A stretch of 64,000 bases of DNA from an uncultured delta proteobacterium (lineage in GTDB: Bacteria > Desulfobacterota > Binatia > JACPRU01): NCBI GenBank assembly GCA_963745025.1, contig CAVUWD010000016.1, forward strand, positions 512,001 to 576,000, in the 5' to 3' direction. The notes below the pieces were generated by a model, which searched no databases, had not been told where the DNA came from, and saw only the letters and a list, made by a program, of their open reading frames with translations. Position numbers and translations under genes: made by a program. Shown here in pieces: positions 52,896-57,238 of this stretch. Position 1 is the first letter of the stretch, and every line of letters begins with the position of its first letter.

Positions 52896-52972
52896 GGAGT
52901 TTCTTTCCCTCGTCCTTGTCCCATGCGGCTCAGCGCAGCAGCGAAGCCTTGACTTCCGACCCGCTTTCAGGG

Positions 52973-53926
52973 TCACGCGCTGGCGCGCGGCGTCTGACGG
53001 TAGCCGAGATACACGGCCCCACCTGCGACGCCCGCGAGCATCACGACGGCGAACCAGGTGAGCGCGAACGCGATCGCCGACTCCCGGGAGATGCCGATGT
53101 GCGCGAGGAAGAATACGTATCCACCTTCGCGAACGCCGAGGCCGTTCATGCTCACGGGGATCGCCGCCATGATGTTCACCAACGGCCCGAGAATGAAACA
53201 GTAGGACCACGGCACGGCGAGTCCGAGCGCCCGCGTGAGGATCATCAAGACGCCGATCTGCGACAGGTGAAACATGAAGGACAACGCGCCGATGTCGATC
53301 AAGAGCCGACGGTCATTCCAGTACGGGTGAAGGTCCTGCTCGACGAGCCGACGCAGGCGGTTCTCTCGGGGCAACACCGCCGGCAGCACCCGCGGCAGCA
53401 GCCGCCAGCCGCCGAGCAGCGTGGAGGCCAGAACGATCACCCCCCAGTAAATCCAGGCCGGCAGGTCGTAGTGGTGAAACAGCACGAGCGCTCCGAGCGC
53501 GATTGCGAGCAGCACCGCGAGACCGCTCACGCGGTCCGCCACGACGGTATTGAGGGCGAGCCCGCGCCGACCGTCCTGGCCCGCGAGATAGAGGGCGCGC
53601 ACCACGTCCCCCCCCACCGTGCCGAAGCCGAACGCGTTGAAGAACATGCCGATGAAGTAATACGCGATGAAGCGCGGCAGACTCGCGCGGAAGCCGACCG
53701 CGGAAGCGAGCCGGCGCCACTTGATCGCCGAAAGCAACTGCCCGGCGAGGTAGAGCGCCAGCGCGGCGCAGAGCAGCGCGCCGTCGGCGTGAGCCAGGAA
53801 GCGGCCGATCTCCGCGAAGTCCACACGGCGAGAGAGATACACGAGCAGACCGGCGCTGACGGCGATCTTGATCCCGAGCTTCCAGGAAGTCGCCGCCGCG
53901 CGCGCCCCGAATTCTTGCGCAGGCAC
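52973..53926 (-). CDS. UPF0104/LPG_synthase_TM flippase-like membrane protein
   Basis: KIAVSAGLL, KWRRL, YFIGMFFN..VGGDVVR, DRVSGL, PVSMNGLGVRE. Confidence 0.88.
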   Translation of the reverse strand: MPAQEFGARAAATSWKLGIKIAVSAGLLVYLSRRVDFAEIGRFLAHADGALLCAALALYLAGQLLSAIKWRRLASAVGFRASLPRFIAYYFIGMFFNAFGFGTVGGDVVRALYLAGQDGRRGLALNTVVADRVSGLAVLLAIALGALVLFHHYDLPAWIYWGVIVLASTLLGGWRLLPRVLPAVLPRENRLRRLVEQDLHPYWNDRRLLIDIGALSFMFHLSQIGVLMILTRALGLAVPWSYCFILGPLVNIMAAIPVSMNGLGVREGGYVFFLAHIGISRESAIAFALTWFAVVMLAGVAGGAVYLGYRQTPRASA

Positions 53927-54037
53927 ACGCGGCTTCTATCGGGAACGCCGCGAAATGAAAACGTGCACTCCGCGTAAGGCCAGTGTAAGGCTTCAGTTTT
54001 TGCAAGAACTCACCAAGGCCGTCGCACAACGATCAGC

Positions 54038-54199
54038 GCGCGTGTTTGTGTTCGAGCCGTACTCGGATCGAACACAAACACGCGCCACCGCGCGAAGCGC
54101 GGAACGGTTCGAGCCGCGCCTTGGGTATCGCGTTCCGCGCTTCGCGCCGCGGCGTGGGTTGGCGGTCGACCCGAATACGGCTCGACCGCCAACCCACGC
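54038..54199. other. Triple perfect-hairpin element (candidate structured ncRNA or DNA element)
   Basis: Perfect stems of 18 bp (54038-55/54068-85), 17 bp (54090-106/54131-147) and 18 bp (54152-169/54182-199), separated by 4-nt linkers. Confidence 0.85.
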
Positions 54200-54313
54200 G
54201 CTCTTCCTTGTTCCGCACAGTGCGGTAGCCGTCCTCCGGCAGAAGCTGAGGCCCTACCACCCCGGCTCGCGCCGCGGCTTGGCAGTGCCCGCGAGTTGGC
54301 CTATAGCTCGCGC

Positions 54314-55810
54314 ATGAGCATGGGCCGGACGCTCCGGCGAATCGCGCTGGTCGAGCCTCCGTACGTCTTCTGGGATCGGAGAATGGATCGGCTGCGCCAG
54401 ACCGAGGAATCGATTCCGGGAATCGGCATGCTGGTGTTGGCGGCCGTCGCGCGGCGCAACGGATACGACGTCGCGATCTTCGACGCCAAGGGCAGCGGCG
54501 AGACGCCGGGCGGCGTCGCGGATCGCATTCTCGCGTTTCGACCGGACGTCGTCGGCTTCTCGGCGACCACGATCTCCATCACCAACGCGGCGCGGATCGC
54601 CGGGCTTCTCAAGCGCTCCGTACCCGAGCTCGTCACGGTCGTCGGCGGGCCGCACGTGAGCGCAGTTCCCGAACGCACGCTCGCCGCCTTCCCGAATCTC
54701 GACTATGCCATCATCGGCGAAGGCGAGATCTCCTTCTTCGAGCTTCTCGAACGTCTGCGCTGCGGGCGTGCGATCGAGGGGTGCCCAGGCCTCGTCCATC
54801 GAACGCCTGCGGGTGAGATCGTCGCCAATCCGCGGTCCCCCTACCTCACCGATCTCGACGCCTTGCCGCTCCCGGCCTGGGATCTCGTCCGCGGATTTCC
54901 GCACGGCTTCCATCCGTCGCTCTTCAGCTACCGGAGGTCGCCGGTCGCCACGCTGGTCACGAGCCGCGGTTGTCCCTTCTCGTGCTCGTTCTGCGACCGC
55001 TCCACGTCGGGCAAGCTCGGCCGTTACCACACCACGGAGTCGGTGCTCCGCCACTGCCAGCACCTCGTCGACTTCGGCGTGCGGCACATCATCTTCTACG
55101 ACGACCTCTTCACCGTGAAGAAGAAGCGCGTCGTCGAGCTCTGCGAGGCATTTCTCGCGTGTGGTTTCGATTTCACTTGGAGCTGCAACAGCCACCCGAA
55201 CCTTCTCGACCCGGACACGCTGCGGCTGATGAAGCGGGCGGGTTGCTGGCAGATCGCCTACGGAATCGAGTCCGGTTCACAGCGGATCCTCGACGTGGTC
55301 AAGCGCGAGGTGAGTTTGCCCCGAATGCGCGAGACGCTGCGCATGACCCGTGCCGCCGGCATTCGCGCCAAGGGCTACGTGATGATCGGTCACCCGACGG
55401 AGACGTTACAGACGCTCGAGGAGACCGCGGAGTTTCTCAAGATCGTCGAGCTCGACCTCTGCCAGGTGACGAAATTCACCCCGTACCCGGGCACTCCCGC
55501 CTACTCGACGATTCGCGAGTTCGGCCGCTTCGACGAAGATTGGGAGCGGATGAACGCCATGAACTTCGTGTTCATCCCGAGCGGTCTGAACGAGGAAATC
55601 CTCGAAACCTACTTCCATCGTCTCTATTCGATCTTCTACTGCCGGACCGACGTTCTGCGCGGCATCGCGCGACTGGTCGCGGAGGAGCCGCGCTTCCTCC
55701 GCCAGCTCGGCTCTTCGGCCTGGGTCTACTTGAAATCGCAGTTGCCGGATCGACGCTTCCGCCGCGCGATCTTCGGCAAGCGCGTCGCCCCCGAATCACT
55801 TGCCTCCTGA
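54314..55810 (+). CDS. Cobalamin-binding radical SAM protein
   Basis: PDVVGFS, VVGGPHVS, IGEGE, TSRGCPFSCSFC, FYDDLFT, GIESGSQRIL, PYPGT. Confidence 0.92.
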   Translation: MSMGRTLRRIALVEPPYVFWDRRMDRLRQTEESIPGIGMLVLAAVARRNGYDVAIFDAKGSGETPGGVADRILAFRPDVVGFSATTISITNAARIAGLLKRSVPELVTVVGGPHVSAVPERTLAAFPNLDYAIIGEGEISFFELLERLRCGRAIEGCPGLVHRTPAGEIVANPRSPYLTDLDALPLPAWDLVRGFPHGFHPSLFSYRRSPVATLVTSRGCPFSCSFCDRSTSGKLGRYHTTESVLRHCQHLVDFGVRHIIFYDDLFTVKKKRVVELCEAFLACGFDFTWSCNSHPNLLDPDTLRLMKRAGCWQIAYGIESGSQRILDVVKREVSLPRMRETLRMTRAAGIRAKGYVMIGHPTETLQTLEETAEFLKIVELDLCQVTKFTPYPGTPAYSTIREFGRFDEDWERMNAMNFVFIPSGLNEEILETYFHRLYSIFYCRTDVLRGIARLVAEEPRFLRQLGSSAWVYLKSQLPDRRFRRAIFGKRVAPESLAS

Positions 55811-57002: not shown

Positions 57003-57040
57003 CGGCACCTCCCGTTGCGAGCAGCCTAGCGCCTGTCCTA

Positions 57041-57117
57041 CCTCGCTCCCGTTGGTCGCGAGGCTGCTCCGGTAGAATGTTCGGCCGGAGCTGACCTCGC
57101 GAGCAACGGGAGCAAGG
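57041..57117. repeat. Long imperfect palindrome (dispersed repeat family)
   Basis: GCTCCCGTTG-g-TCGCGAGG-ct-GCTCCGG / CCGGAGC-tga-CCTCGCGA-g-CAACGGGAGC. Confidence 0.75.
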
Positions 57118-57238
57118 CCCAACAATCGCTAAGCTTCGACCACTCAGCCTGGCACACTAGCATGTCCCGCGCTACGTCTCGACCAGCAGGCTCCGACGAC
57201 CTGTTGGCAAGCCGCAACACGCGAGATAGATCGAGCGC

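Follow-up and report, generated by a model that had tools for sequence, protein, structure and literature searches.

Three long, mismatch-free hairpins lie one after another between two divergent genes in the 64,000-nucleotide stretch of DNA that we analyzed (the window). Do they belong to a structured RNA, or are they part of a mobile element? The initial annotation favored either a free-standing, self-assembling or switching non-coding RNA with kissing loops, or a non-autonomous mobile unit acted on, as cruciform or single-stranded DNA, by a nuclease or recombinase supplied in trans. From the evidence described below, we are confident that the triple hairpin is the core of an IS66-type MITE, likely moved in trans by a resident IS66-family transposase. 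As a MITE, the element is ordinary in kind. The feature of note is the concerted change of its hairpin arms, which also occurs at resident copies.

The hairpins and their predicted fold

Direct reading of the sequence bore out the geometry given in the initial annotation, with three perfect stems of 18, 17 and 18 bp, 4-nt linkers (CACC between H1 and H2, CGCG between H2 and H3) and an AGC/GCT closing pair around all three hairpins (54035-54202). The stem arms are GCGCGTGTTTGTGTTCGA in H1, GCGCGAAGCGCGGAACG in H2 and GCGTGGGTTGGCGGTCGA in H3, and each opposite arm is the exact complement. As also claimed, H1 and H3 combine the same geometry with different stems, which are identical at 13 of 18 positions, and their loops are near reverse complements, matching at 10 of 12 positions. 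The sequence GTTCGAGCCG, said to recur in the H2 loop, is indeed present there as a second copy (Table 1). A repeat finder paired 54026-54106 with 54131-54211 as 81-nt arms that are 79% complementary. Thus, the whole element is an imperfect palindrome with the H2 loop at its center, in which H3 repeats H1 in inverted and diverged form.

Other details of the locus read differently. The motif CCAAGGC (54013-54019) and its complement GCCTTGG in the H2 loop are both present, but their complementarity is not conserved, as sister copies carry GCAAAGC. The 12-nt tops of H1 and H3, described as loops, are partly paired in the predicted folds: each forms a CCG/CGG helix of 3-4 bp, with TACT or the complement of TACT as its cap. 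The further hairpin proposed at 54224-54258 corresponds to the right subterminal region plus the terminal inverted repeat (TIR), and the predicted single-strand fold joins both TIRs as a basal helix.

Table 1. Features of the element and its flanking genes, in window positions (G001, genome of the sister species; X1, contig from an independent DNA run)
Feature	Position	Strand	Basis
Whole MITE, non-coding, imperfect two-fold palindrome (284 nt)	53974..54257		Sister-copy alignment, G001 empty site, family HMM
Left target-site duplication copy, 8 bp, CACTCCGC	53966..53973		G001 empty site
Right target-site duplication copy, CACCCCGG	54258..54265		G001 empty site
Left TIR, GTAAGGCCAGT (53974-53984) then GTAAGGCTTCAGTTTTTGC (53985-54003)	53974..54003	+	Sequence read, TIR motif scan; matches IS end GTAAGGCCTCAGTCTCCGT
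Right TIR, minus-strand reading GTAGGGCCTCAGCTTCTGC	54239..54257	-	Sequence, sister alignment, TIR-pair scan
H1, perfect 18-bp lower stem, 12-nt top; conserved top TCGA-GCCGTACTCGGA-TCGA	54038..54085		Sequence read directly; one of 144 such units in the genome
Direct repeat GTTCGAGCCG, copy 1	54050..54059	+	X1 contig joins 54049 to 54107
H2, perfect 17-bp stem, 24-nt loop; stem GCGCGRAGCGCGGAA... conserved across the family	54090..54147		Sequence, fold, family alignment
Direct repeat GTTCGAGCCG, copy 2, in H2 loop	54107..54116	+	End point of natural 57-nt deletion
H3, perfect 18-bp stem, 12-nt top; inverted, diverged H1 copy	54152..54199		Sequence, fold, inverted-repeat finder
LPG_synthase_TM family membrane protein gene, flanking, outside the element, transcribed away	52973..53926	-	PF03706, 7.8e-42
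B12-binding radical SAM protein gene, flanking, outside the element, transcribed away	54296..55810	+	PF04055 and PF02310

The predicted fold is very stable on both strands. As plus-strand RNA, 54000-54270 folds at -155.2 kcal/mol, compared to -108.9 +/- 4.7 for shuffled sequences (z = -9.96; 0 of 200 as stable), and the minus strand of the element gives z = -9.80. Such stability would suit a structured RNA that acts as a stabilizer, terminator or regulator in neighboring transcripts, or as a small RNA, with host selection keeping the pairing. The available text of the 2024 MITE review likewise reports stable transcript structures for bacterial MITEs in general. We nevertheless consider an RNA role improbable. 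At gathering thresholds, Rfam matched only rRNA and tRNA in the window; at E values up to 10, the best matches to the element were mir-4520 (23.6 bits, threshold 90) and BTH_s1 (22 bits, threshold 74). Within 53850-54400, a consensus scan found no sigma-70-like promoter, and there was no real T-tract terminator, the four terminator-like matches being hairpin fragments plus T-rich stem sequence. The element is also symmetric and occurs in both orientations. Its only ORFs are frames of 60-75 aa running through the palindromes. Contigs from two RNA libraries cover 54214-54545 (X16) and 54338-54590 (X15) and none includes the hairpin core; as contigs break at repeats and the libraries may contain DNA, this weighs neither for nor against a transcript.

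A dispersed family with transposon ends

The element is not free-standing, as had been supposed, nor is it unique, but one of 91 loci. With the 181-nt core as query, we obtained 79 matches in the window's own genome (G000, 5.65 Mb), the best of which were 90-92% identical over their full length. The hairpin-top pattern, allowing up to 2 mismatches, occurred 101 times in forward and 98 times in reverse orientation, compared to 2 and 2 for a reversed control pattern. A family profile made from the five closest full-length copies (nhmmer) gave 180 hits that merged into the 91 loci. These loci contain 75 of the 84 perfect hairpins in G000 with stems of at least 17 bp; among the nine outside, at least one is a family unit that the profile overlooked.

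The layout of the copies accounts for the complementary loops. Two H1/H3-type units are present in 52 of the 91 loci, one in 29 and none in 10, and the full three-hairpin layout (two units plus the H2 motif on both arms) is found in 41. Of the 52 two-unit loci, 48 share one fixed inverted orientation of the facing loops, and 40 of these 48 have a spacing of 110-119 nt between units. Since the two units are fixed in inverted orientation, the loop-loop complementarity that had been read as kissing follows from the palindromic design. This design, together with the Rfam result and the absence of a clear G-T excess in the stems (below), speaks against a self-assembling or switching RNA.

In an alignment that includes the flanks, sister copies resemble one another from GTAAGG through YTTAC, but their flanks are unrelated. 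The ends are inverted repeats of about 19 nt (GTAAGG...CCCTAC), which in the window copy are GTAAGGCTTCAGTTTTTGC on the left and, as reverse complement, GTAGGGCCTCAGCTTCTGC on the right; the left end of this copy also has a small internal duplication, GTAAGGCCAGT followed by GTAAGGCTTCAGT. We examined the 8-mers flanking 27 TIR pairs that lie 90-400 nt apart. They matched at 8 of 8 positions in seven pairs, 7 of 8 in four and 6 of 8 in four, whereas in a control displaced outward by 10 nt none of the 27 exceeded 4 of 8. The duplication at the window copy has decayed (6 of 8 positions match), and a 142-nt copy that lacks H1 and H3 (C11:110943-111084) has a perfect 8-bp duplication, GCTGCTTG, on both sides. 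Seventeen of the 27 TIR pairs are 240-280 nt long and within family loci; an alignment of these full-length copies shows sequence conservation at the ends, in the hairpin tops and along the H2 stem, but not in the H2 loop or in the lower H1 and H3 stems.

The comparison of filled and empty sites that the initial annotation recommended was possible in the sister species (G001, 82% complete), the sole other genome of the genus. G001 aligns to window positions 52900-53970 and 54267-55400 in blocks 2 nt apart and therefore has an empty site with one target copy. It reads ...AAAACGCGTACTCGGTCGCGCC..., while G000 reads ...AAAACGTGCACTCCGC, then 284 nt, then CACCCCGGCTCGCGCC...; the target is a single TACTCGGT in G001, and in G000 the element stands between CACTCCGC and CACCCCGG. 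This comparison sets the limits of the element at 53974-54257 and reveals the flanking 8-bp duplication. G001 itself holds about 13 copies, of which five are at sites that are empty in G000 and one is at a site common to both genomes. We give little weight to this one clear shared site (L066 and C11:119173), as n = 1 and independent insertion at the same site is possible; there, the lower stems of H1 are wholly different yet paired, and H2 is identical at 26 of 26 positions.

Insertion polymorphism was also apparent closer to the window's genome. Two sites at which G000 has no insertion, C13:381240 and C11:311020, are occupied in metagenome contigs that share 95-98% identity with G000; at one of them, the copy is a one-hairpin form of the window's subfamily with CGCGGCC on both flanks. 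One-hairpin forms (L235) are insertion-polymorphic as well. The mobility of the family is recent.

The hairpin-top search proposed in the initial annotation succeeded in G000 and in metagenomes, but not in other genomes of the phylum. Exact matches to the pattern number 32 and 30 in G000, and none of 400 other phylum genomes contains it; the element was not found in six other genomes of the same family (65-84% complete) or in 33 of the same class. Among JGI metagenome contigs, at least 120 stretches contain the top pattern. We fetched and analyzed 80 of these, in which 86 pattern matches comprised 36 true units, 47 chance-like matches and three at contig ends. The true units have at least 13 of 17 stem pairs (22 are perfect), compared to 4-10 of 17 for the chance-like ones, and they lie in 30 loci; the family profile matches all 30 as well. 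A fold-back assembly artefact, for which we found nothing in favor and which we regard as having a negligible chance of being correct, is refuted by the 91 loci, by the copies seen in G001 as well as at 30 of 80 fetched metagenome loci, and by the independent X1 contig, whose 6948 nt, about 2% diverged, bridge both junctions of the window element.

A partner for the MITE is present in the same genome. Scanning G000 for the end motif, we found three end pairs exactly 1882 bp apart (C19:80230-82111, C6:484414-486295 and C6:486304-488185). These insertion sequence (IS) copies differ from one another at 0-1 positions, have identical 19-nt TIRs, GTAAGGCCTCAGTCTCCGT, and are flanked by 8-bp duplications, AACGATCG and CTTCTGGA. 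Their 468-aa ORF matches NF033517 (IS66 family transposase; 218.5 bits, cut-off 180), PF03050 (DDE_Tnp_IS66; 6e-38, 131.3 bits) and zf-IS66 (29.4 bits). No other full IS66 transposase gene was found in G000, which has one fragment besides; MAGs from many phyla encode relatives of the 468-aa protein with identities of up to 61%. In G001, we found three IS66-type genes that are only 31-32% identical to those of G000 and lack the end motif; as that genome is 82% complete, the partner IS may simply be unassembled there.

Ends that start with GTAAG and 8-bp repeats are typical of IS66, and classical IS66 elements carry the accessory genes tnpA and tnpB. The partner IS resembles single-ORF forms of the family, in that it passes the NF033517 and PF03050 models, has 8-bp duplications and has ends starting GTAAG. 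Unlike classical IS66, it has neither tnpA nor tnpB upstream of its transposase, where we found only one small ORF, as fits the single-ORF subgroup; this 105-aa ORF is DUF6788-like (27.0 bits, just below the 27.2 cut-off). The window MITE differs from these forms in having only the 19-nt end in common with the partner IS, and MITE ends match that of the IS at about 15-17 of 19 positions rather than exactly. The interior of the IS has no nhmmer match with the family model and contains neither the hairpin-top nor the H2 motif. Since the interiors share no similarity, we rejected an origin of the hairpin core by internal deletion from the 1882-bp IS.

Short (284 nt) and free of a transposase gene, bounded by TIRs and by a target duplication of fixed length, matching at its ends an autonomous IS with an IS66 transposase, and dispersed over 91 loci with filled and empty sites in both directions, the element has every testable defining feature of a bacterial MITE. 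As MITE and IS have the end sequence and the 8-bp duplication in common, we infer that they are paired and that the 468-aa IS66-family transposase most likely moves the element in trans. In this scheme, the DDE transposase would bind the 19-nt TIRs (GTAAGGCCTCAG...), and an 8-bp staggered cut at insertion would give rise to the 8-bp target duplication. The window copy inserted between its two divergent neighbors once the sister species had diverged. Its three hairpins are the palindromic core of the MITE, with H1 and H3 as inverted copies of one unit and H2 on the symmetry axis. The conserved hairpin tops (TCGR-NCCGTACTCGGN-YCGA) and the H2 stem are probably protein binding sites. Thus, the earlier proposal of a non-autonomous unit served by an enzyme in trans is upheld by the TIRs, duplications, 91 loci, empty sites and matching IS; as to the type of enzyme, a DDE transposase acting on the terminal repeats is indicated, and nothing points to a hairpin-acting single-strand nuclease or recombinase.

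Inverted palindromes of this kind also recall REPINs, which, as described in the available text of PMC3116915, are inverted palindromic doublets of high copy number with conserved parts beside a part whose compensatory changes keep the hairpin. The family shares the inverted doublets of a palindromic unit, the conserved parts and the compensatory changes, and G000 contains two Y1_Tnp matches, so one could imagine REP/REPIN sequences moved as single-stranded DNA by a RAYT (Y1 HUH transposase). We judged this very unlikely and rejected it. One Y1_Tnp gene lies about 5 kb from the closest family hairpin and the other has none within 8 kb, so that, unlike REPINs, the repeats have no adjoining RAYT, and in place of insertions free of TIRs and duplications we found TIRs of the DDE-IS type and 8-bp target duplications. 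Membership in a known Rfam or REP family, which the initial annotation would have counted against its own reading, therefore applies in spirit only: the element belongs to a dispersed MITE family, Rfam gave no match and REP is rejected.

Paired change in the hairpin arms

To follow the stems across copies, we gathered 144 units of the H1/H3 type, each 48 nt long and anchored by its loop core. Their 2592 stem cells comprise 2365 Watson-Crick pairs, 125 G-T, 40 A-C and 62 other combinations. A conserved G-T at stem position 18, beside the top (TCGG...TCGA), is present in 72 of the 144 units. Outside this position, the mismatches are 53 G-T, 38 A-C and 55 other; wobble is thus not clearly favored, unlike what single-strand selection on an RNA would produce. 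Pairing over the outer 17 bp is perfect in 66 units, and 78 have at least one mismatch there. Among the 66 perfect units, there are 35 distinct stems, which differ on average at 6.3 of 17 positions.

The arms covary strongly. In the 122 distinct units, 93.3% of pairs are Watson-Crick, compared to 59.4 +/- 0.7% when partners are shuffled (none of 500 shuffles gets as high) and 20-30% paired when partners are slid. A minimum spanning tree of these units contains 121 compensated and 131 one-sided pair changes, with 18.9 compensated changes expected from independent hits; its 84 shortest edges contain 19 compensated and 83 one-sided changes. Covariation in the stems, raised as a check in the initial annotation, is therefore present, while the pairing between loops follows the fixed inverted design. 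In H1 and H3, the sequence of the lower stems drifts, yet the two arms remain complementary.

Many of the 30 metagenome loci come from a population 94-98% identical to G000, and we used these to look for changes in place. The comparison covered 11 copies with both flanks mapped to the two sides of one G000 copy; copies with one mapped flank, or with flanks on different contigs, were left out. In helices of at least 8 bp, 348 pairs were unchanged, 18 had one-sided changes and six had changed on both sides while keeping Watson-Crick pairing, with 61 further pairs lying in deletions. The six compensated changes among 372 stem pairs compare to 0.55-0.82 expected from independent hits (P = 2e-5 to 2e-4). 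Unpaired and flanking positions of the same 11 pairs differ at 179 of 2694 (6.6%), and the per-base change in stems is 4.0%. One compensated change, C-G to T-A in H1 of the C2:28806 copy, was checked by eye. Another is at the window locus itself: in the X1 contig, T>G at 54160 and A>C at 54191 turn a T-A pair of the H3 stem into G-C.

The same contig revealed that hairpins are also lost. It lacks the 57 nt between the two copies of GTTCGAGCCG, which provide 10 nt of common sequence, so that half of H1 and half of H2 are gone. In the metagenome population, the C19:140263 copy has lost 115 nt between its two hairpin tops. Hairpins are thus both corrected and deleted in nature, a pattern more in keeping with unstable palindromic DNA than with a function at each locus that the host cannot do without.

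These observations bear again on the RNA reading. The strong covariation and the compensated changes in place at orthologous loci would be expected if host selection maintained a structured RNA, and compensatory changes are described for bcr1 (below). Against this, wobble is not clearly favored in the stems, and natural deletion variants remove hairpins at the same loci, including the strain variant of the window locus that lacks H1 and H2. By a gene call made with a crude GC3 filter that covers only 53% of the genome, moreover, the neighboring gene pairs (62 tandem, 17 convergent and 10 divergent) are distributed much as around all intergenic regions, with no marked orientation bias; the same call puts 89 of the 91 loci outside genes.

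What, then, keeps the arms paired? The cause that we prefer, with about even confidence, is templated correction of one arm from the other, which would occur by intrastrand template switching at quasipalindromes during replication. In this replication error, one arm is copied from the other, perfecting the palindrome (PMC7202029, available text), and paired changes would result without selection. The mechanism is known as a source of mutational hotspots in reporter genes, and we infer its action on the window element. Templated correction is preferred because the compensated changes arise at resident copies, because the rate of change in stems is near that at unpaired positions (4.0% compared to 6.6%) and because the pairing is Watson-Crick rather than wobble-tolerant. 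The excess of one-sided over compensated changes in the orthologous pairs (18 compared to six) counts against it, and the mismatches in 78 of 144 units, together with the G-T that persists at position 18 in 72 of 144, indicate that any correction is incomplete. Gene conversion from other copies may also produce paired changes.

A more tentative explanation is that the hairpins are needed for transposition and that pairing is kept by selection among element lineages. All subfamilies keep the sequence of the tops and of the H2 stem, with lower stems that vary yet stay paired; the orientation of the units is fixed in 48 of 52 two-unit loci; and the folded single strand joins the TIRs as a basal helix, all of which would be consistent with such a need. 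One conceivable version, to which we give limited credence, is that the transposase or an accessory protein, such as the product of the DUF6788-like ORF, recognizes the extruded hairpin tops; another, held just as loosely, is that extrusion shortens and bends the element of about 280 bp so that its ends meet. However, copies without H1 and H3 can have a perfect 8-bp duplication (C11:110943-111084) and the one-hairpin form L235 is insertion-polymorphic, so hairpin-poor forms appear to move too. The autonomous IS lacks such hairpins, and selection of this kind cannot explain compensated changes at resident orthologous copies. That the hairpins form as extruded DNA that the element needs, whether as protein sites or to let the ends of a short transposon meet, is less likely than not; if true, it would define an IS66-type DDE transposon family dependent on cruciform or hairpin DNA, with pairing kept at resident copies. 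Templated correction, in a bolder variant in which it is efficient enough to homogenize the arms, would instead make the family a set of about 90 built-in reporters of the process, measurable in natural populations.

Precedents and consequences

In the available text of the literature, bacterial MITEs such as MITEPsy1 of Pseudomonas syringae and QMITE2 of Coxiella are, like the window element, small, non-coding, multi-copy and mostly intergenic, with TIRs as in an IS of the same genome, a target-site duplication and stable predicted folds. Unlike these MITEs, the window element combines IS66-type ends and an 8-bp duplication with three separate long hairpins, a fixed two-fold layout and covarying lower stems. 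A described IS66-derived MITE was not found in the papers that we searched, the available text of PMC3189936 among them, and the term IS66 does not occur in the available text of the 2024 MITE review, although such an element may be described elsewhere. The window element clearly exemplifies a MITE with ends of the IS66 type.

For hairpins that covary in small mobile DNA, the compensatory changes of REPINs and of bcr1 are precedents. The latter, a mobile repeat of about 155 bp in the Bacillus cereus group, lies between direct repeats and retains a cruciform-like structure through compensatory base-pair changes (PMC3184786, available text). Compared by description, bcr1 differs from the window element in its 5-bp direct repeats, its structure at the RNA level and its unrelated host.

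With about 91 loci in G000 and more in relatives, these sequences should be masked as a MITE family rather than annotated as RNA genes, terminators or regulatory sites. Since the window copy sits in the promoter region between the membrane protein and radical SAM genes, it may affect the expression of both. The 144 units, 35 distinct perfect stems and orthologous copies also form a natural data set with which to ask whether long hairpins are kept perfect by selection or by templated correction.

The IS66-family insertion sequence and a mini form of the MITE

The three copies of the 1882-bp IS66-family insertion sequence, the presumed transposase source for the MITE, differ from one another at 0-1 positions. 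Each carries one transposase ORF and, upstream of it, a 105-aa DUF6788-like ORF. Two of the copies are arranged head to tail, separated by a single 8-bp copy of the target, CTTCTGGA, and nothing more.

A 142-nt mini form of the MITE is flanked by a perfect 8-bp duplication, GCTGCTTG. It retains the central hairpin, H2, without H1 and H3; one of these two inverted units is reduced to both end pieces of its stem, as if the interior of the palindrome had been deleted.

Coordinates of features in the window and in its genome, G000 (C, contig)
Feature	Location	Strand
Complete rRNA operon (16S, two tRNAs, 23S, 5S)	window 4897-10330	-
MITE mini form, 142 nt	G000:C11:110943-111084	
Y1_Tnp (IS200/RAYT-like) match	G000:C13:188500-188823	
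Y1_Tnp (IS200/RAYT-like) match	G000:C11:419866-420189	
1882-bp IS66-family IS, copy 1	G000:C19:80230-82111 (101-1982 of L057, the locus stretch carrying it)	
1882-bp IS66-family IS, copy 2	G000:C6:484414-486295	
1882-bp IS66-family IS, copy 3	G000:C6:486304-488185	

Y1_Tnp genes and RNA-family matches

Both Y1_Tnp matches in G000 lie within long open frames (342 and 398 aa), and the MITE family showed no association with either. The Rfam family BTH_s1 (Burkholderia sRNA 1) matches the - strand of window 54029-54227 weakly but over its full length; the score is 22 bits (E = 0.003), where the threshold is 74. This match at the MITE may reflect a shared multi-hairpin shape and perhaps nothing more.

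Other repeats

A second repeat type in G000, the heptamer GGCTACN, occurs in runs at 148 places genome-wide, frequently as inverted pairs that form hairpins of 15-17 bp; examples lie at G000:C2:268068 and beside the MITE-family copy at G000:C16:1135639-1135887. A further imperfect palindrome at window 57023-57135 (41-nt arms, 78% complementary, 31-nt spacing) has about four partial relatives elsewhere in G000 and may be an additional low-copy repeat.
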